Origin: Pristiophorus japonicus
Lineage: Eukaryota
Direction: 5' to 3'
Assembly: GCF_044704955.1 (NCBI RefSeq)
Contig: NC_091992.1
Span: 14,198,001 to 14,262,000, forward strand
DNA: 64,000 bases
Of the stretch, positions 2,676-48,561 are shown piece by piece. Under the pieces are notes generated by a model that worked only from the letters and a program-made list of their open reading frames with translations, did no database searches and was not told where the DNA came from. Made by a program: the position numbers and the translations under genes. The stretch's first letter is position 1. Each line of letters starts with the position of its first letter.

Positions 2676-3684
2676 AAGACTTGAAACGAATTGGCCTTTG
2701 GTTTCCTCTTCAAACACGATGGCCAAATTTTGTAACAGAACAGTATCTGCCAAATCTGATACTTCTCAAATTAACTGTTCCATTTGATGTCATGAATAGC
2801 CCAGAATAAATGGGCCAGAATGTGTATGTAGCAGGGCATCAGTTAGGCTTGTACTCTGCGTCCTTCAGGTCAAAAAAAACTTTGCCCACAAAGTTGCTGA
2901 TAACGGGACAGCGAGGGAATCGGGGCTTCTGGGACCTGAGTGAATAGGGCAAGCAGCAGGGTACTTCCCTTAACCAGTGAGATTTAAACATTGGGAAATA
3001 AACACAGGAAGGACTGAGAAGGAGGGTGCAGTAAAGGGGTGAACTCAACGTCAAATCAGATACAGAAAGAGAGAGGAAAGAAGACTGAATTGAGAGAGCG
3101 AGAAAAGAGTGACAGGAAAGATAAGAAAAACATTTAAAATTATATTTTTTAAATCTCCCCCAAAAATTCAAAACCTGAAGGTGTGAGACTCCACACATGT
3201 AATAATTAATTTTTTGGTGCTAGATAGGTTGATTGGCAGTCATTAACATTAAAAGGGCACTTGCGCTAATAATTACAAGACTTAACTTTCTGCGGCTAGT
3301 TTCAGTGGTCAATTAATGAGCAAATGCAGCAAGTTACAAAAAACGGGGAGGCTAAGGGCGGAATGCCGTTTTCACAAACGGCGGAGCAACACAACTCCAA
3401 CAGCAACTTTTGGGCATTGACATTTAACCGCGCATCTGCTCCTCGCCTGTCATTGTGACGTCATTGTGGTATATTTCTAATGACACCGGTGTCCCTTAGT
3501 TCAGTGTACTGCCATTAATAATAATACTGGAACCACGTGCATGTGCTAGTATACCCAAAATGCTAGTTATCAAACTCACCAATTTTATAGGGCGCTGAAA
3601 CCAAAAAGGGAATTGCAACATCCATAATGGTGGGGCAATTTTGGAGACTTGTCCAGTGCATGGTGCCGTTTGAGAATGGACACA

Positions 3685-4045
3685 GGAAAATTAGGAACAC
3701 GAGTAGGTCACTCAGTCCCTTGGGTTTATTCCACCATTCAGTTAGATCATGGCTGATCTGCACCTCGGATCCAATTCTTGCCTTTGCTTCTTTCCTTAAC
3801 ATTAATCTATCAATCTCAGCCTTGAAAGAAAAGAAAGCCTAGCATTTATATAGCACCTTTCACGACCACCGGACGTCTCAAAGCACTTTTACAGCCAATG
3901 AAATACTTTTGGAGTGTAGTCACTGTTGTAATGTGGGACATGCTTCAACAGTCCTAGGATCCACAGCCTATTCCCACAGGGTGAGAACATTCCAAATGTC
4001 TAGCATTCTTTGTGTGGAGAAAGTGCGTCCTGATTTTTCTCCTCC
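3685..4045 (-). mobile_element. Old CR1 3' fragment interrupted by a Deu-SINE tail (~3825-3940)
   Basis: ccaccattcagttagatcatggctgatctg matches the CR1 3' end; gaaagaaaag..gcatttatatagcacc matches the SINE tail. Confidence 0.65.
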
Positions 4046-4517
4046 ATTATTTAGTGTAAAAGATTCCTGCTTTTAGGCAAAAGAGAACAGGTAATTTGGT
4101 TACTCATTGGTGCTTAAGGTTTTCCTTGATGCAGTCATCTGTGCCTTCCTGGTTTAAAGCGGCTAGTATCATTCATTTTTAAAAATTGTTCTTGGGATGT
4201 GGGCGACAGTGGCTATACGTATTTATTGCCCATCCCCAGTTGTCCTTAGAAGATGAAGAAGAGCCTTCTCCTAGAACTGCTGCATTCCTTGGAGTGATGA
4301 TGCTGACCATTGCAGGGACAGGCCCCTAGTCAGCAATGTCAGTGTTCTGTGGGCTCACCTATTGCAAGTTGTGAGTATAGTTTGTTCCGGGGTAATCTCT
4401 GCAGACCCAAGCAGCACAACCTAGGACTTAGTGGATCTAATGATGCATTTACATTGCAATTCCCGGTTTCAGATCTGCAGTGTGGGTTCCAGCCATACTC
4501 TGTTCCCTCTATTTCAT

Positions 4518-4850
4518 CCGTCTTTCAGATGAGACGTTAAACCGAGGCCCCGTCGGCTCTCTCAGGTGGACATAAAAGAACCGCCAGCACTATTTTGAAG
4601 GTCAGGGGAGTTATCCCCGGCGTCCTGGCCAATGTTTATCGCTCAATCAACATCACTAAAAAAACAGATTATCTGGTCATTATCACATTGCTGATTGTGG
4701 GAGCTTGCTGTGCACAAATTGGCGGCCGCGTTTCCCACATTACAAGTGACTACACTCAAAGTATTTCATTGGCTTTAAAGCACTTTGGGACGTCCGGTGG
4801 TCATGAAAGGTGCTATAAAAATGCAAGTTTTTCTTGCTTTCTTTCTATCT
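4518..4850 (+). mobile_element. Deu-domain SINE (SacSINE1-like), 5'-truncated
   Basis: gatgagacgttaaaccgaggcccc core and gctataaaaatgcaagt tail, shared with more than 10 copies in this window. Confidence 0.8.
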
Positions 4851-6381
4851 GTCTGTAGCTCAGATTCTTCGGCCCAGGAGAGGTTTGTTGAAGCAAAGTT
4901 TCTCCTGCGACAGTTAAATTGCAAATGTTTGCAGAGTGCGGGCTGCACCTTTATATTGTGTAAACATTTAAATTACTGTAGGTAGATTTTAAAAGCATCC
5001 AAGAGCACTTGTTACACCCAATTTGTCACCTCATTGGAGTCAAGTACCCGTGGTGTCAATTTGAAGTGGTGAGACACAAGGTGTCTTGCACCGCCCTTCC
5101 CCGCCCCCTCCAACGCAGTGAAGCCAAGGTTAGGCTCTAAGCTCTAGATTTACACTAATCCAAAGCCAAACAGCTGGCGCCCATGCTAAAGCTGCAGTGT
5201 TAAAGCACCCTACTGGTACAGAAATTTCCATTACACTGAGCTCCAACAGTGTCTCTTACCGGCAGCCCAGATCATCAGGTTGGCATTCCCTGTGAATAGA
5301 ATTGACCATAACCATGCACTGAAAGTAACAGGATTTCATCCCAAGGCACATTCAACATGAATAGCTTCAAACTAGAAGATTATACAGGCTAACAGCTCAG
5401 TAGACACTGATGTGCACTCAAGTCCTGCAATCTTAAGAGCATTAGAACAGTAATGCCACACAGCTTCTTAAAGGACCACACATATAATTGCCTATTAAAA
5501 GCCATGGGGGGGACGTGCTGTTCTTAAATAATCAACCTCCAATTAATTACCCATACTTTGCTCTCCTATTATTTTAGTCTAGGATTTATGGATAGTTGGG
5601 TGTAATTAGCTGCAATTTGAGACTTCAGATATTAAAACTCTGAAGCAAAATCTGAGTGGCTTATGAATGCCCTGTCCTTTTCAATTTCTCTCTTTCTTCC
5701 CTTGCAAATGTTGGTCCTTCCTGCAGCCACCTAATCTTCAATTCTGACGGTAGGATGGTGAAGCTGTACAATTAGTCCAATAAACCTGGTCAACATAGTA
5801 TGAAACCAGGACCTGCTCCAGCTTCAATATACTATAAAAGTATGGTATTTATATCTTTAGAAATGACTCTGGCTGCTCAATCCAACAAAAGGCATCATCA
5901 AATGTTACAAGGCAACCTATGCCCATTTTCCCCACTCCCAATGCTCTGGCCAAAGATTGGTGAAAATTGGACATCAGACTGGTCTTGAGACTTTGAGGCA
6001 GGAGGTAAACATTCTAACATCTCCTTCAACCTAGCCTAATTCTACAGGCATTTTGATTAAAATCCATATTCAGATATTCAAATCGATTGATGGAGATTGG
6101 CCATGGTGGTATCTCTGCCTCGTTCTCACTGATCCTGAGTTACCCAGATATTTCTGTTTATAACAAGGAGAATAATTTCATATGTGGTTGTGGCCTATTT
6201 ACACCGGACATTTAACAATATTATAGTTAAAGAAAAACATCAGGTTCCAAATAAATTTTCAAATGCACCCAACACTCGTCCGTTTTCTAGTTCCCGGCTC
6301 CCATTTGTCTCTCGAAGTCGTGCTGCTTGTGACTCAATCAGCTTGTATGTTGAAACTAAGCTACGCTAGAAGTGGCCGTGA

Positions 6382-6821
6382 TTTTTTTTTTGTTTTTATT
6401 CGTTTACGGGATGTGGGAGTCACTGGCAAGGCCAGCGTTTATTGCACATCCCTAATTGCCCTTGAAGGTGAGCCACTTTCTTAAACCAGTGCAGTCCATG
6501 TGGTGCAGCTCTTTGTAGCGGTTTGGTACAACTGAGTGGCTCACTAGGCCATTTCAGAGGGTTGTTCAGAGTCAACCACCTTGCTGTGGGTCTGGAGTCA
6601 CATATAGGCCAGACCAGGCAAGGGCATTAGTGAACCAGATGGGTTTTTATGACAATCCGGTAGTTTCATAACCACCATTACTGACACTAGCTTTATATTC
6701 CAGATTTATTTAATTAACTGAATTTAAATTCCACAGCTGCCATGGTGGGATTTGAACACACCCATAAGACCAGGCCTCTGGATTACTAGTCTAGTAGCAT
6801 AATCACTATGCTATCGTACCC
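6382..6821 (-). mobile_element. tRNA-derived SINE, second family
   Basis: Minus strand starts gggtacgatagcatagtg (A-box-like), has gttcaaatccc (B box) and an A-rich tail; sister copy at 29535-29950. Confidence 0.75.
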
Positions 6822-6872
6822 GCGTAAAAGGTTTTGGGAACATTTGCAATCGTCCGCTGAAAGTAAATAAAA

Positions 6873-9800
6873 TATAAGAACATAAAAAATAGGAGCAGGC
6901 GTAGGCCATTTGGCCCCTTGAGCCTGCTCCGCCATTCAATAAGATCATGGCTGATCTGATCATGGACTCGGCTCCACTTCCCTGCTCGCTCCCCATAACC
7001 CCTTTACTCCCTTATCGCTCAAAAATCTGTCTATCTCCGCCTTAAATATATTCAATGACCCAGCCTCCACAGCTCTCTGGGGCAGAGAATTCCATAGATT
7101 TACAACCCTCAGAGAGAAGAAATTCCTCCTCATCTCAGTTTTAAATGGGCGACCCCTTAGTCTGAGACCTTAGGCCCAACATTGCCCAAGCTGTTTTTCG
7201 GCGCACTAACCTGAAGCGTGCCAACTTTGCATGCTGGGAAGGGCGCCAGAAAAAAGGGGCCCCATCCTGGCCGCTCTTCGGAGTCGTGGCATGGCATGCA
7301 GTTTATGGGGGGCACGGAGCAATAGGCCAGTGCAGCAAGCACTGCCGGCACCTGCGCGTATGCTCAGTGAGGGTTGCGCGCATGCTCCTGCCCTCCCAGC
7401 GCGTCCTGTGGGCTGTGAACAGGTCCCGATGCTCAGCCCCTATCCCCAGCCGAAGGGATGCCTGATCTCGCCGCACCTTAACCCCGTCCGAGTGGCCTCC
7501 CGCACCGGCCGGCCGGCTGAGTTCCCGGGCGTGGTAGGACTTCGGTTCTATTTTTTATTTAGTGGCTATGCTTGAGATTTTTGATTTGGAGGAGGGAGGA
7601 GAGGAGAGGAGAGGAGAGTTTTGGGGGTGGAGGAGGCGAGTGTATTGGGGGGAAGAGGAGGCGAGTGTATTGGGGAGAAGAGGAGGAGAATGTATGGGGG
7701 GAAGGAGGAAAGTGTTTTTCGGGGGAGGAGGAGAGTTTTGGGGGAGGAAAGAGAGAGTGTTTTGGGGGGGTGAGGGACAAAGTGCTTTGTATACCAACGT
7801 GCCTCTCTTTCTCTCTTTTTATCTCTCTGGCTACTCCCCACTTCTTTCCCCCCCCCCACCCCCGGTGACATCGCGGCCAGCAGTTCTCATTTCTCCGGTA
7901 GGATTTACTTTACTTTTATTAGTATTTTAATTGTTTGAGATTTTCCTTGCAATGTTTGGTGCTTGGTTATTGAGGTCCTCTCCAATTCCCTTCCCTCCCC
8001 TATCCCTGCCCTAATGTCTACCTATTGTGCGCTGCTTTTTCTTCACTGCCTGCAAAGTTTTTCAGAGCTGGCCACATATGCTAAACTAAGTGGATTTGGA
8101 GTAAGTTTTTGCTGGCCAAAGTGGCATAAATGGCCAAAACTGGTGTAAGTGTCTGGGAACGCCTCCTTTTGAGAAAAAAAACTGACCTAAAAAAAATTGT
8201 ACCTAACTGACTTAATCTGGAGCAAATTTTGGGGGGGGAAATGGCATTTTTTAACTTATGCCAGAAAAAACAACTTACTCCAAAAAAATGGATGCAAGTC
8301 ATGGCTAAAATTAGGCCTGATGAGTGGAAATATCCTCTTTGTCGAGCCCCCTCATTATCTTATATGTTTTGATAAGATCACACCTCATTCTTCTGAACTC
8401 CAATATGTATAGGCCCAACCTACTCAACCTATCTTCATAAGTCAACCCCCTCATCGCCGGAATCAACCTAGTGAACCTTCTCTGAACAGCCTCCAATGCA
8501 AGTATTATCCTTCCTTAAATACGGAGATCAAAACTGTACGCAGTACTCCTGGTGTGGCCTCACCAATACCCTGTACAGTTGTAGCAGGACTTCTCTGCTT
8601 TTAAATTCTACCCCCCTTGCAATAAAGGCCAACATTCCATTTGCCTTCCTGATTACTTGCTATACCTGCATACTAACTTTTTGTGTTTCATGCATAAGAA
8701 CCCCCCAGGTCCCTCTGTACTGCAGCACTTTTTAATTTTTCTCCATTTAACTTATAATTGCTTTCCTATTTCTTCTGCCAAAGTGGATAACCTCACATTT
8801 TCCCACATTATAATCCATCTGCCAAATTTTTGCCAACTCACTTAGCCTGTATATATCCCTTGGCAGATTTTTTGTGTCCTCCTCACAACTTACTTTCCCA
8901 CCCATCTGTGTATCATCAGCAAACTTGGCTACATTACACTCAGTCCCTTCATCCAAGTCATTAATATAGATTGTAAATAGTTGAGGACCCAGCATCGATC
9001 CCTGCAGCACCCCACTAGTTACTGTTTGCCAACCGGAAAATGACCCATTTATCCCAACTCTCTGTTTTCTGTTAGTTAGCCAATCCATGTTAATATATTA
9101 CTCCCAACCCTGTGAACTTTTATCTTGTGCAGTAACCTTTTATGTGGCACCTTATCGAATGCCTTCTGGAAATCCAAATACACCACATCCACTGGTTCCC
9201 CCTTATCCACCCTATTCGATACATCCTCAAAGAACTCTAGCAAATTTGTCAAACATGATTTCCCTTTCATAAAACCACGCTGACTCTGCTTGATTGAATT
9301 ATGCTTTTCCAAATGTCCCGTTACTGCTTCCTTAATAATGAACTCCAGCATTTTCCCAACGACAGATGTTATACTAACTAGTCTACAGTTTCCTGCTTTT
9401 TGTCTGCCTCCTTTTTTAAATAGGGGTGTTATATTTGCGTTTTTCCAATCCGCTGGGACTTCCCCAGAATCCATGGAATCTTGGTAGATTACAACCAATG
9501 CATCCACTATGTCTGCAGCCACTTCTTTTAAGACCCCAGGATGTAAGCCATCAGGTCCAGGGGTCTTGTCTGCTTTTAATCCCATTATTTTACCGAGTAC
9601 TACTACATTAGTGATAGTGATTCCTCCCTTTGCCCCCTTGATTATCCACTATTGGGATATTTTTTGTGTCTTCTACCATGAAGACCAATACAAAATATTT
9701 GTTCAATGTCTTTGCCATTTTCCTAATCTCCATTATTAATTCCCCAGTCTCATCCTCTAGGGGACCAACATTTACTTAATCCACTCTTTTCCTTTTTAGG

Positions 9801-21477: not shown

Positions 21478-21603
21478 GGGCTAGAAATTCATCTCGCAAA
21501 CCACATTGACTGCAGTGAACCTGAATATCAGATGCTGCATAGAACGGGCGGCCAATCCGATACCGCCCACTTTGCACTACTGCACGAGACTAATTTCTAG
21601 GCC
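21478..21603. mobile_element. 126-bp Harbinger-type MITE
   Basis: TIRs gggctagaaatt / aatttctaggcc. Confidence 0.65.
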
Positions 21604-21840
21604 ATGGGCCCTGAAATTCCGTGGGAAGATTGCCGGAACCCCTGGGGAAAGAGCTCAAAACAGCCAATGATCATTTTTCCTGGCAGGAGCCGATTACCGC
21701 ACAGGCCACTGGAGCCTGTACATGGGCCCTGAAATTCCGTGGGAAGATTGCCGGAACCCCTGGGGAAAGAGTTCAAAACAGCCAATGATCATTTTTCCTG
21801 GCAGGAGCCGATTACCGCTCAGGCCACTGGAGCCTGTACA
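21603..21840 (+). repeat. 118-bp tandem duplication starting with a Harbinger-like TIR (gggccctgaaattcc)
   Basis: Units begin at 21603 and 21721 and are nearly identical. Confidence 0.9.
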
Positions 21841-26176: not shown

Positions 26177-27070
26177 ATTCCCATTGTACAGATTCTTATT
26201 TAACCAGTTCCCATTGTGCAGGTTCATATTGGACTGGTTAACATTACACAGGGAGTGTTTGCCAGTATCACTGGGCTGCAGCGCTATGTATTGTGCTGTG
26301 CAAATCCACCAAGCTCCAAGCCACCAGTCTGGGATCTGGTCGGCAAACACTTGGGGGTCTGTCCCAATGGCCAATATTAGGAGTTCTGGGTTTAGCTCAA
26401 GCCTGTCTTGCACATTTAGATACTGTGCGGTAAACCATCCAGCAAACCCACAGCTCCTGTGAAGGACTGGTTGTATGATATCTCTCGTGTTGCTTTCATA
26501 CCATACAGTCTGCCCCTGATATTTCAATGTCGATTCTTGTTTTTGAATTATCCCGTAATTGAGATTAAGGAACTGGAGTAAAACAACAATTCGGGATGTT
26601 TTAATGCAATTCAAATCATTCATTCATTCGAATTAAGCGACAGGGAGTTATCGGAACTAAACCGTTTGACACTTTCAGTGATGCTGTAACACCCAACGCA
26701 GCATCGAAGGTAGAGTTTAAAATGGGCAGATGATTATCAATGTTGGGAAGGTACCTAAAGAAGGTGCTTTTACACAACTGTTGATGCAAGGTCTGTGCAG
26801 GCGGCAACATTGGGAAATGTAAACTTATACAGCCAATGGCAACAGCGACCTCTGTGGATCCATTGTCAGAACTAAGACTTTCCTCAATTACCACAAATGA
26901 TCAGGGGCGGGGTCAGCCTGTTTCCATTGCGATCACCAGTGCATGATCAGGTGACCTTAGAGCACGATCACATAGTGTTCACCAATTTGCACAACATAGA
27001 ATAAATCAACATTTAATACACGCATACATTTTTAGTTTGACTGGGCAACTTGTTTTGCCTCCCTCCTGTT

Positions 27071-27492
27071 CCTAAGGAAACTCGCACACACTCGCACTGC
27101 ACAGTATCTAAGGAAACTCCTTCACACTCACTGCACAGTTTCTAAGGAAACTCCTTCACACTTGCACTGCACAGTATCCAAGGAAACTCGTGCACACTCG
27201 CACTGCACAGTATCTAAGGAAATCCCTTCGCACACTCACTGCACAGTATCTAAGGAAACTCCTTCACATTCACACTGCACAGTATCTAAGGAAACTCCTT
27301 CACACTTGCTGCACAGTATTTAAGGAAATCCCTTCACACACTTACTGCACTGTAAGGAAACTCCTTCACACTCTCACTGCACAGTATCTAAGGAAACTCG
27401 CGCACACTCGTACTGCACCGTATCTAAGGAAACTCCTTCACACTCACTGCACAGTAAGGAAACTCACGCACACTCGCACTGCACAGTATCTA
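27071..27492 (+). repeat. Minisatellite, ~35-bp unit, about 12 copies
   Basis: Unit ctaaggaaactccttcacactcactgcacagtat with variants. Confidence 0.95.
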
Positions 27493-27614
27493 ATGATACA
27501 TTAATACCCAGTATTGACTCTGAATGTGGAACACAGAAGAAAGGCTTTGATTGTAGTTGAACAAACTTTTAAAAATGTTAAATTTATTTTTAAATGCTAT
27601 ATTTCTTTCCACAG

Positions 27615-39594: not shown

Positions 39595-40598
39595 GGCTCA
39601 GTGCTGGGACCCCAGCTCTTTACAATATACATTAACAATTTAGATGAAGAAATTGAGTGTAATATTTCCAAGTTTGCAGATGACACTAAATTGGTGGCGG
39701 TGTGAGCTGTGAGGTCAACGCTAAGAGGCTGCAGGGTGACTTGGACAGGTTAGGTGAGTGGGAAAATGCATGGCAGATGCAGTATAATGTGGATAAATGT
39801 GAGGTTATACATTTTGGGGGCAAAAACACGAAGGCAGAATATTATCTGAATGGCGGCAGATTAGAAAAAGAGGTGCAACGAGACCTGGGTGTCATGGTTC
39901 ATCAGTCACTGAAAGTGGGCATGCAGGTACATCAGGTGGTGGAGAAGGCAAATGGTATGTTGGCCTTCATAGCTAGGGGATTTGAGTATAGGAGCAGGGA
40001 GTTCTTACTGCAGTTGTACAGGGCCTTGGTGAGGCCTCATCTGGAATATTGTGTTCAGTTTTGGTCTCCTAATCTGAGGAAGGACGTTCTTGCTATTGAG
40101 GGAGTGCAGTGAAGGTTCACCAGACTGATTCCAGGGATGGCTGGGACTGACATATGAGGAGAGATTGGATCAACTGGGCCTTTATTCACTGGAGTTTAGA
40201 AGGATGAGAGGGGATCTTATAGAAACGTATAAAATTCTGACGGGACTGGACAGGTTAGATGCGGGAAGAATGTTCGCGATGTTAGGGAAGTCCAGAACCA
40301 GGGTACATAGTCTTAGGATAAGGGGTAGGCCATTTAGGACTGAGATGAGGAGAAACTTCTTCACTCAGAGAGTTGTTAACTTGTGGAATTCCCTGCCGCA
40401 GAGAGTTGTTGATGCCAGTTCATTGGATATATTCAAGAGGGAGTTAGATATGGTCTTACGGCTAAGGGGATCAAGGGGTATGGAGAGAAAGCAGGAAAGG
40501 GGTACTGAGGGAATGATCAGCCATGATCTTATTGAATGGCGGTGCAGGCTCGAAGGGCCGAATGGCCTACTCCTGCATCTATTTTCTGTGTTTCTATG
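39595..40598 (+). mobile_element. CR1 LINE 3' ~1 kb
   Basis: KFADDTK, WQMQYNVDKCEVIHFG, LVRPHLEYCVQFWSP, RRNFFTQR and tail. Confidence 0.92.
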
Positions 40599-45862: not shown

Positions 45863-46170
45863 GGCAACCGCTGCCACGGCGACCGAGCCCCAGACACCAC
45901 GTACGGCGTCGGCGTCAGTGTCACACATGAGCGCATGCGCCGCTGGAACTGTCAATCATTTAGCGCACGGGGGGGGGGGGGGGCGGGGTTAGAGCCCGGG
46001 CGCCTCGACTGCGCATGCCCGACTGGAACCGTTAATCACTCCGCGCACGGGGGGCGGGGTTAGAGGCCAAACGCCACGGACTGCGCATGCCCGACTGGAA
46101 CTGTCAATCACTCCACGCACGGGGGGGGGCGGAGTTAGAAGCCGGGCGCCTCGCACTGCGCATGCTCAGT
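45863..46170 (-). promoter_or_regulatory. IFT20 CpG-island promoter with RFX X-box and a triplicated ~75-bp module
   Basis: GTCGCCGTGGCAGC (minus, 45870-83); GCGCATGC at 45931, 46011, 46083 and 46158; TGATTGACAG (minus) at 45949 and 46101; GC boxes. Confidence 0.8.
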
Positions 46171-46821
46171 ACCTTACATGTAATATAACCTGTAAAAATT
46201 ATGTGTATTGACCCAATGCAAGTGCAGACAAGCAAAGGCTGTGTCATCGCATCTATGTTCTTCTCAATCTTCCTCGCTGCAATGCTTCATCTCACCCTTA
46301 ACGAGCTCTCCGCTGGAGTGGAGTTAATCTGCAGGACAAGCGGGAAATTGTTCAACCTTCTACGCCTCCAGTCTAGATCCAACGTTGCTCCAACCTCTGT
46401 CATTGCATTACAATATACAGACGGCGCTTGCATTTATGCACACTCGGAGTCCAAACTCCAAACCATCGTTGACACCTTCACTGAAGCGTATGAGAGTCTG
46501 GGCCTTACATTAAACATCAGTAAGACAAAGGTCCTCTACCAACCTGCCCCCACCACACAGCACTGCTCCCCGGTTACAAAAGCTCCACGATGAGACCTTG
46601 GAAAATGTGGACCACTTCCCATACCTTGGGAGCCTACTATCAGCAAGGGCAGACATCGATGACTAAGTCCAACACCAATTTCTGTGCGCCAGTGCAGCCT
46701 TCGGCCATCTGAGGAAGAGAGTGTTCGAACACCAGGATCTCAAATCCGGCACCAAGTTCATGGGTTACAGAACAATAGTGATACGCCCTCCTATATGATT
46801 CAGAGCCATGAATTATGTACA

Positions 46822-48337
46822 TCATCATCATAGGCAGTCCCTCGTAATTAAGGAAGACTTGCTTCCACTCCTAAAGTGAGTCCTTTGGTGGGACAGACAT
46901 TCGTTGGGGAAGGGGGGGGTGGGACTGATTTGCCACATGCTCCTTCCGCTGCCTGGCAGTGTGGGCTGTGGGGGGGACGCTAGGGGGCTGCAGGGTGGCT
47001 TGGACAGGTTGGGTGAATGGGCAGATGCGTGGCAGATGCAGTGTAGTGTGGATGGGTGTGAGGTTATCCACTTTGGGGGCAAAAACACGGAGGCAGAATA
47101 TTATCTGAATGGCGGCAGATTGGGGGGGGGTGGTGCAGCGAGACAAGGGTGTCGTGGGGCATCAGTCATTGGGGATTGAAGAAGGCAAATGGTATGTTGG
47201 CCTTCATAGCTAGGGGAGGGATTTGAGTATAGGAGCAGGGAGGTCTTACTGCAGTTGTACAGGTCCTTAGTGAGGCCTCACCTGGAATATTGTGTTCATT
47301 TTTAGTCTCCTAATCTGAGGAAGGATGTTCTTGCTATTGAGGGAGTGCAGCGAAGGTTCACCAGACTGATTCCCGGGATGGCAGGACTGACATATGAGGA
47401 GAGACTGGATCAACTGGGCCTGTATTCACTGGAGTTTAGAAGGATGAGAGGGGATCTTATAGAAACGTATAAAATTCTGACGGGACTGGACAGGTTAGAT
47501 GCAGGAAGAATGTTCCTGATGTTGGGGAAGTCCAGAACCAGGGGACATAATCTAAGGATAAGGGGTAAGCCATTTAGGACTGAGATGAGGAGAAACTTCT
47601 TCACTCAGTGAGTTGTTAACCTGTGGAATTCCCTACCGCAGAGAGTTGTTGATGCCAGTTCATTGGATATATTCAAGAGGGAGTTAGATATGGCCCTTAC
47701 GGCTAAAGGGATCAAGGGGTATGGAGAGAAAGCAGGAAAGGGGTACTGAGGCGAATGATCAGCCATGATCTTATTGAATGGTGATGCAGGCTCGAAGGGC
47801 CGAATGGCCTACTCCTGCACCTATTTTCTATGTTTCTATGCCTGCGCCTGACCTCTTCATGCTTGTGGCGTTGAGATTCGAAGAGCTCAACGCCCTCCCA
47901 GATGCACTGTCTCCACCTAGGGCGGTCTTCGGCCAGGGACTCTCAGGTGTCAGTGGTGATGTCGCAATTTACCAGGGAGGCTTTGAGGGTGACCTTGTAA
48001 CATTGTCGCTGCCCACCTTTGGCTCGTTTGCCGTGAAGGAGCTCTGCATAGAGCAATTGCTTAGGGAGCCTCATGTCTGGCATGCGAACAATGTGGCCTG
48101 TCCAGCGAAGCTGATCGAGTGTGGTCAGTGCTTCAATGCTGGGGATGTTAGCCTGGGCAAGGACACTGATGTTGGTGCACCTGTCCTCCCAGGAAATTTG
48201 CAGGATCTTGCGGAGATATTGTTGGTGATATATCTCCAGCGACTTGAGGTGTCTTCTGTACATCATCCATGCCTCTGATCCATACAGGAGGGCGGGTATT
48301 ACTACAGCCCTGTAGACCATGAGCTTGGTGGTAGATT
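46822..48337 (-). mobile_element. Younger RTE LINE inserted antisense into the older RTE, itself split by CR1
   Basis: (tca)n tail at 46822; TSD tgtaca (46816-21 / 48338-43); KSTTKLMVYRAVVIPALLYGSE. Confidence 0.85.
46956..47838 (+). mobile_element. CR1 3' fragment with an A->G hypermutated 5' portion
   Basis: TSD tgcctg (46950-55 / 47839-44); colinear with 39700-40598. Confidence 0.9.
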
Positions 48338-48561
48338 TGTACAGTAGGCACCTCAAAGCACTGGAGAAGTACCACCAAAGCTGCGTCCACAAAATCCTGA
48401 AAATTCATTGACAGAATAGGTGCACCAACATCAGCGCTCTCTTTCAGGCCAACATCCCCAGCATGCCAACATTGACCATGCTCGATCAGCTCTGGTGGGC
48501 GGGCCCCATGTCCGCATGCCCGATGCTAGACTTCCGAAACAAGCACCCTACTTCGAGCTAC

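Follow-up and report, generated by a model that had tools for sequence, protein, structure and literature searches.

The 64,000-nucleotide (nt) stretch of the Pristiophorus japonicus genome analysed here (contig NC_091992.1, positions 14,198,001 to 14,262,000; hereafter the window, to which positions refer) contains a truncated copy of a CR1-type long interspersed nuclear element (LINE), at one end of which A has been replaced by G in a dense tract. Sequence comparison leads us to think that CR1 RNA was very probably edited by ADAR, and that reverse transcription then wrote the A-to-G tract into heritable DNA. The changes are real, confined to the insertion and placed on the strand of the copied RNA; they recur in at least 35 copies of the family, have ADAR-like neighbours, and in one case lead from a source locus to its daughter. 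An earlier note on the window, made from its letters alone, had proposed a hyperedited CR1 transcript retrotransposed in the germline as a one-off event; our searches of the 5.9-Gb genome support the proposal, and show a single event to be too narrow a description of a recurrent process. Which enzyme acted, and that it acted in the germline, we infer from the sequences.

A tract of A-to-G changes that arrived with one insertion

When the majority base of each column in 30 other CR1 copies is taken as ancestral, 23 of the 62 family A's in 46956-47176 of the focal copy have become G, with 8 other substitutions, while the 30 other copies carry 0-5 A-to-G changes over the same columns. The excess is extreme against both the family rate of 1.6% (P = 2e-25) and the copy's own 3' part (P = 2e-14), where, as the earlier note had read it, the bias is gone (1 of 174 A's in 47177-47838). 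At seven of the 23 sites G also occurs in at least 3 of the other 30 copies, and these seven changes may have been inherited; at the remaining 16 it occurs in at most 2. The by-eye count of about 26 A-to-G differences from a sister copy in the window was a fair one, since 23 A-to-G and 3 G-to-A changes align in 46950-47180 and a run of three A's (47172-47174) falls in a gap, and the translations given for the sister, a distant CR1 and the focal copy were reproduced. Of the sequence examples in the earlier note the A-to-G cluster is real, whereas part of 'ttagaaaaag' is the sister's own change, the family reading differently there. A sense-strand G-to-A cluster, the signature of APOBEC-type editing, is absent from the focal copy (3 G-to-A versus 23 A-to-G).

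The focal copy shows the hallmarks of a retrotransposed LINE, namely an intact 3' tail, 5' truncation and a target-site duplication of 6 base pairs (bp); for most other edited copies no clear target-site duplication was found. It lies in an older, different repeat, which we take to be RTE-like, and this host repeat has 0/98 A-to-G changes in total (0/25 left, 0/73 right). Because the host repeat is unedited on both sides, the A-to-G changes came with the insertion. The open reading frame (ORF) of an unedited relative matches Pfam RVT_1 (E 9e-28), identifying a non-LTR (long terminal repeat) reverse transcriptase; the clade name CR1, adopted from the earlier note and in keeping with the tail repeat, is a provisional label. 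In itself the focal copy is functionless, a dead fossil.

A 23-nt deletion marks the end of the tract; it is also present in the unedited copies L005 and L013, both chosen by focal-copy query. Several kinds of event gather at the family position that corresponds to window 47170-47190: tracts begin or stop there, 5' truncations and small deletions fall there, and so does a nested insertion, partly as an effect of query choice.

A sequencing or assembly artefact, with base calls biased towards G, is barely credible here. Clustered artefacts, of the G-to-A type, have entered assemblies before (PMC2873906), and the confirming runs X1, X2 and X4 are one sample, possibly the assembly's source. Against this, contigs from the reads show no difference from the focal copy in run X1 (46989-47075, depth 10.9) or run X4 (46994-47076, depth 12.1), and with unique flank contigs at depths of 8.2 and 10.9, respectively, the 5' half of the cluster stands at single-copy depth; a contig of run X2 covers 46989-47023. 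The earlier note had allowed that reads might carry A, and at every site that the contigs cover they show G. Among the contigs listed none lies over the edited sites 47122-47174, and this other half is seen in the assembly only. In a second sample, X5, of unknown kind, two short zero-difference contigs (depth 4 and 7.9) lie over five edited sites; they could represent the same locus or fresh RNA editing and are too weak to count, and among the pieces listed there were none from X6 or X7. Across the family, moreover, the bias follows the strand of the element on both genomic strands, and neither the trinucleotide profile of the tracts nor their biological boundaries are those of miscalled bases.

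Independently edited copies recur across the genome

We searched the genome with a 31-nt pattern carrying three forced A-to-G changes, and found 15 loci, against 48,364 unedited matches; a second search, at another site, found 21 loci against 45,439, the unedited counts in both cases including duplicated copies. Because one locus is common to the two sets, they comprise 35 distinct edited copies. An A-to-G tract is thus present in at least 35 CR1 copies, the focal copy and at least 34 others, with 13-260 changes per copy, and all 35 have at least 5 A-to-G changes in 100 nt, the weakest (L102) marginally so, as the forced sites are counted. No copy among 42 unselected ones (28 after duplicate removal) exceeds 6 in 100 nt, and a G-to-A control pattern returned three loci, 0/3 of them clustered. 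Mirror patterns for T-to-C returned one locus per search, both true tracts (129 and 27 changes). Tracts on the sense strand of the element thus number 35 A-to-G versus 2 T-to-C (p = 1e-8), far from the equal frequency that the earlier note had named as a danger to its reading, and one of the two T-to-C tracts goes back to a source transcript in which that segment was antisense (see below). Edited loci lie on both genomic strands (5 forward and 10 reverse in the first search, 10 and 11 in the second). With a pattern sensitivity of ~0.27-0.28, taken from context rates, we put the share of copies edited at a given site very roughly at ~0.1-0.2%, and the searches suggest some hundreds of edited copies genome-wide.

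The edited copies arose independently. That they are instead a G-rich CR1 subfamily, or duplicates of one mutated ancestor, is highly improbable and largely refuted, even though the median concordance at A sites (0.64 over 468 pairs of edited copies) exceeds the 0.51 expected under independence and seven focal sites are shared with relatives. A common context preference is expected to raise concordance to some degree; the highest concordance of any pair is 0.80, and the pairs at that end have 0-1 other variants in common, so that the G-rich haplotype shared by dispersed copies that the earlier note had considered is not seen. Tract limits and 5' ends vary from copy to copy, and the missense load is heavy.

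Neighbour context points to ADAR

Over the tracts of the 35 copies, anchors excluded, 2537 of 6126 A's have become G, a rate of 41% that is inflated by the definition of tracts through A-to-G density. Other changes stay near the background of unselected copies: A-to-T at 1.1%, A-to-C at 0.85% and T-to-C at 2.0%, versus 0.9, 0.9 and 1.5%. The edited share depends on both neighbours, falling from U (0.65) through A (0.59) and C (0.35) to G (0.22) on the 5' side and from G (0.49) through A (0.47) and U (0.36) to C (0.30) on the 3' side, with G ranking first on the 3' side in 3 of the 4 classes; the extremes among triplets are UAG (0.77) and GAU (0.14). ADAR sites are described in two studies as having a deficit of G upstream and an excess of G downstream of the edited A (PMC4365171, PMC3197674), and the pooled context is ADAR-like and fits this motif. 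Clustered and near-pure A-to-G change on one strand, as expected of an ADAR product, is seen in the focal copy as well as in the pool. Hypermutation restricted to TpA is not what we observe, as all four 5' neighbours are edited and T-to-C is at background. The earlier note had seen the ADAR preference in the focal copy by itself; there, A's after T or A make up 14/23 edited versus 13/38 unedited A's, a difference short of significance (p = 0.06). The motif emerges only when copies are pooled, the focal copy alone being too small a sample.

Error during second-strand synthesis is the likeliest of the alternatives: a polymerase of the eta or iota type, or one working from skewed nucleotide pools, would place G opposite template T. 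Polymerases eta and iota have mixed error spectra. With such errors, too, top-strand changes would not extend beyond the insertion and would favour A's that follow T or A. We nevertheless consider this unlikely, since A-to-T and A-to-C are at background, unlike those mixed spectra, and the observed rates are 30-66% of A over up to 1.8 kb; polymerase error also gives no reason for a 3' G preference, or for tracts to stop at the 3' untranslated region (UTR) or at the antisense/sense junction of the daughter copy described next.

An edited daughter and its unedited source

The larger strand exception proved informative. The T-to-C copy on contig C10 consists of an antisense CR1 segment and, after it, a sense 3' end, and a search with its junction led to an unedited locus on contig C8 (L118) with the same junction and the same private variants. 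Daughter and source differ in their flanks, and the daughter has a longer tail and lacks the upstream part. Of the daughter's A's, 134 of the 275 that lie in the antisense arm have been edited, compared with 2 of the 175 that belong to the sense 3' arm; the neighbours of the edited A's show the profile seen in other edited copies. Because it is the antisense arm that is edited, the changes track the strand of the copied RNA and not the coding strand of the LINE; because the C8 source is unedited, they arose in a single copying step. The upstream arm of the source is 89% complementary to the antisense arm over 1208 columns, and the last edit of the daughter falls 24 nt short of where the pairable segment ends. 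The upstream arm also holds a small inverted CR1 piece. The other T-to-C case, at L121, may be an inserted piece of edited antisense RNA.

Several candidates were set aside along the way. L076 had been taken for a twin-priming inversion until the nested source locus was found; two of the four loci that matched the junction pattern proved to be something else, L094 a nested insertion of independent origin and L095 an ordinary copy; and a fixed family 5' end at 2.9 kb was wrong, truncation there occurring in the source-locus arm only.

The same loci bear on editing after insertion, in which the substrate of ADAR would be the DNA strand of an R-loop, or gene conversion would copy edited pre-mRNA back onto the locus. 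With model substrates, ADARs are able to deaminate the DNA of DNA:RNA hybrids (PMC12925331), and many tracts have internal boundaries. This route predicts an orientation set by host transcription, not 35 versus 2, and tracts that cross insertion junctions. The 5' flanks were callable in 2 of 12 other edited copies, one of these two being edited at its 5' end, and no tract crosses into the flank at either of the two testable edited 5' junctions, that of the focal copy and that of L074 (0/37 A-to-G in the flank versus 33/60 in the first 200 nt). The edited copy L067 has since received a nested CR1, and this younger element is itself unedited (4/78). Deamination of the first cDNA (complementary DNA) strand would yield sense T-to-C, and in the pair on C8 and C10 the daughter is edited and the source locus is not. 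We regard editing after insertion as very unlikely.

A spared 3' UTR and a model for copying of edited RNA

Where editing reaches the end of ORF2, as it does in 8 copies, the 3' UTR has 4 A-to-G changes among 138 A's, versus 41.6 expected. Several non-L1 LINEs require their 3' UTR for copying (PMC3747384), and by analogy the CR1-type LINE would likewise need an unedited 3' UTR. A bound protein, or the 3' UTR's own fold, could have been the shield instead; the focal 3' UTR hairpin (-27.3 kcal/mol, z -1.48) is not significant. A-to-G changes alter up to 148 codons per copy and hit codons for the two catalytic Asp residues in 4 of the 24 copies spanning them; because of these hits, the enzyme was supplied in trans or made before editing. 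The A_deamin domain matches six loci in the genome.

The 5' ends of edited copies lie at most 100 nt upstream of the anchor in 5/15 cases versus 1/28 unselected copies (p = 0.015), suggestive of shorter edited copies, with the proviso that an alignment may break off too soon within edited sequence. Three edited, independent copies (L062, L063 and L065, at L079, L080 and L082) start within 2 nt of one family position, with 0-3 other variants in common, and a break-off hotspot is possible there. Template switching as the cause of tract ends is unsupported: an indel lies near 3 of 23 internal 3' boundaries, versus 0.088 expected per window, in a test to which the focal 23-nt deletion is invisible because the reference lacks 21 nt there.

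We suggest the following sequence of events for ADAR editing before reverse transcription. A CR1-containing transcript would pair with antisense CR1 RNA, supplied either by an inverted CR1 that read-through had placed in the same transcript or by a separate RNA, and ADAR would deaminate between one third and two thirds of the paired A's to inosine. The LINE enzyme would then bind the unedited 3' end and prime at a nick, so that only RNAs with an unedited 3' UTR would be accepted for copying, probably in trans, because many edited RNAs could not encode a working enzyme. The reverse transcriptase would copy inosine as G into germline DNA, to be inherited with the insertion, and inosine-rich RNA would tend to halt copying early.

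Several observations weigh against this account. Depletion of G on the 5' side, which the earlier note had expected, is absent from the focal copy, where 7 of 18 such A's are edited, and in the pool a downstream A is favoured almost like a downstream G, beside the inflated rate already mentioned. The source locus of the focal copy was not found: a genome pattern search (1 mismatch) for the 4-nt insertion private to this copy matched the focal locus only. An exact-hairpin test of the C8 source failed, in that a stretch whose partner in the upstream arm is deleted today is still edited (11/22 A's); this deletion may be younger than the editing, or the partner may have been another RNA. The sense 3' arm of the daughter is unedited though a complementary arm exists in the C8 locus, for which the order of co-transcriptional folding could hypothetically be the cause. 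Finally, human L1 RNA was left unedited by over-expressed ADAR1 across the >2.5 kb sequenced in one study (PMC5224506).

We lean, with some reserve, towards a broader view, in which a LINE that chooses its template by the 3' UTR would routinely write ADAR-hyperedited transcripts into the germline of this vertebrate, at about one or two per thousand copies per site and some hundreds in all. Its fossils would record ancient germline double-stranded RNA (dsRNA) and the specificity of ADAR on single molecules, and could be followed back to source loci that contain inverted nested copies. Catalytic editing would act as a brake on LINE copying, both through the need for an unedited 3' UTR and through early termination on edited templates.

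Relation to known editing systems

Carmi 2011 is said to describe APOBEC-edited retrotransposons fixed in vertebrate genomes. As in APOBEC-edited retrotransposons (PMC4866542), a deaminase-scarred element still integrates and strand-specific clusters are polarised on a consensus; the APOBEC system, in contrast, acts by C-to-U on cDNA and leaves sense G-to-A, where the CR1 copies show A-to-G in a non-LTR element, and that screen covered LTR elements filtered for G-to-A over A-to-G. The CR1 tracts resemble ADAR hyper-editing of inverted-repeat dsRNA in their dense one-strand A-to-G, upstream G deficit and downstream G excess, and the substrate there is inverted retroelement pairs, as we propose here (PMC4365171, PMC3197674); unlike those RNA-only events, the CR1 changes are fixed in the genomic DNA of new insertions. 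A-to-G hypermutated Rous-associated and avian leukosis viruses, which have an inverted repeat region with nearly half of its A's changed in ADAR fashion (PMC12925331), are similar, but they are isolated cases in infectious retroviruses, whereas CR1 is an endogenous LINE with dozens of inherited independent events. ADAR1 also engages human LINE-1 RNA, like our proposal, but restriction of LINE-1 is reported to be independent of editing (PMC5224506), whereas the CR1 copies point to catalytic editing in vivo. One mouse provirus has an A-to-G excess without ADAR context (PMC12548423), and a 2016 review leaves the role of ADAR editing in retroelement evolution open (PMC4982230).

RNA hyper-editing by ADAR, APOBEC-scarred fixed retroelements and ADAR-type hypermutation of avian retroviruses are already known; new here are a non-L1 family, large pooled statistics, a spared 3' UTR and a source-daughter pair. 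A search at the level of titles and abstract openings, with Carmi 2011 and supplements outside it, found no published report of fixed ADAR-edited LINE copies. If our interpretation is true, these copies are the ADAR counterpart of APOBEC-edited retroelements, and an RNA modification has been made heritable via reverse transcription. With hundreds of independently edited copies, the role of editing in retroelement evolution would become testable from assemblies alone, as would questions about germ-cell dsRNAs, which ADAR acted, the blocking or truncation of copying, and templates used in trans. In repeat dating, edited copies would give distorted ages, and in mapping studies they can be mistaken for RNA editing.

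Feature coordinates and further observations

Table 1. Coordinates of the focal insertion, its surroundings and related loci (window positions, except in the last two rows).
Feature	Position	Strand	Basis or remark
CR1-type LINE insertion, 5'-truncated (ORF2 end, 3' UTR, 8-nt tail repeats)	46956..47838	+	89% to sister copy 39695-40598
A-to-G hypermutated tract, 23/62 family A's changed	46964..47174	+	family alignment; read-derived contigs support 46989-47076
23-nt deletion, end point of edited tract	47176..47177	+	alignment to sister and relatives
Unedited 3' part of focal insertion, including 3' UTR hairpin and tail	47177..47838	+	1/174 A-to-G
4-nt insertion private to focal copy	47214..47217	+	pattern search
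Target-site duplication, left copy, 6 bp	46950..46955	+	
Target-site duplication, right copy	47839..47844	+	2-nt overlap with tail
Older, different host repeat, 3' end, unedited	46820..46955	-	0/25 A-to-G, 0/30 T-to-C versus 29 relatives
Host repeat continuation, unedited	47839..48339	-	0/73 A-to-G, 1/125 T-to-C
Unedited sister CR1 copy (comparison used in the earlier note)	39602..40598	+	0 A-to-G over tract columns
Source locus L118 (G000:C8:1760000-1769900)	3053-7923	reverse	antisense CR1 nested near 3' third of 5'-truncated sense CR1
L121, tail-less 285-nt CR1 fragment, 27 T-to-C, 5-bp duplication	4788-5073	reverse	inside older LINE

Among the other CR1 copies, L122-L157 (G000:C1, first 4 Mb) include five groups that are near-identical (at least 97.5%), some with common frameshifts, and are either segmental or tandem duplications or a very recent burst. 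About ten tandem 33-nt units lie inside an edited CR1 at L081:6554-6862 (oriented; copy L064), where slippage of the reverse transcriptase is possible. Elsewhere in the window, three imperfect repeats (45931-46165) that are rich in CpG and contain GCGCATGC words and runs of G are promoter-like and lie upstream of an old LINE fragment, and a tandem array of ~70-nt units and a 119-nt direct duplication occupy 27068-27499 and 21603-21840, respectively.
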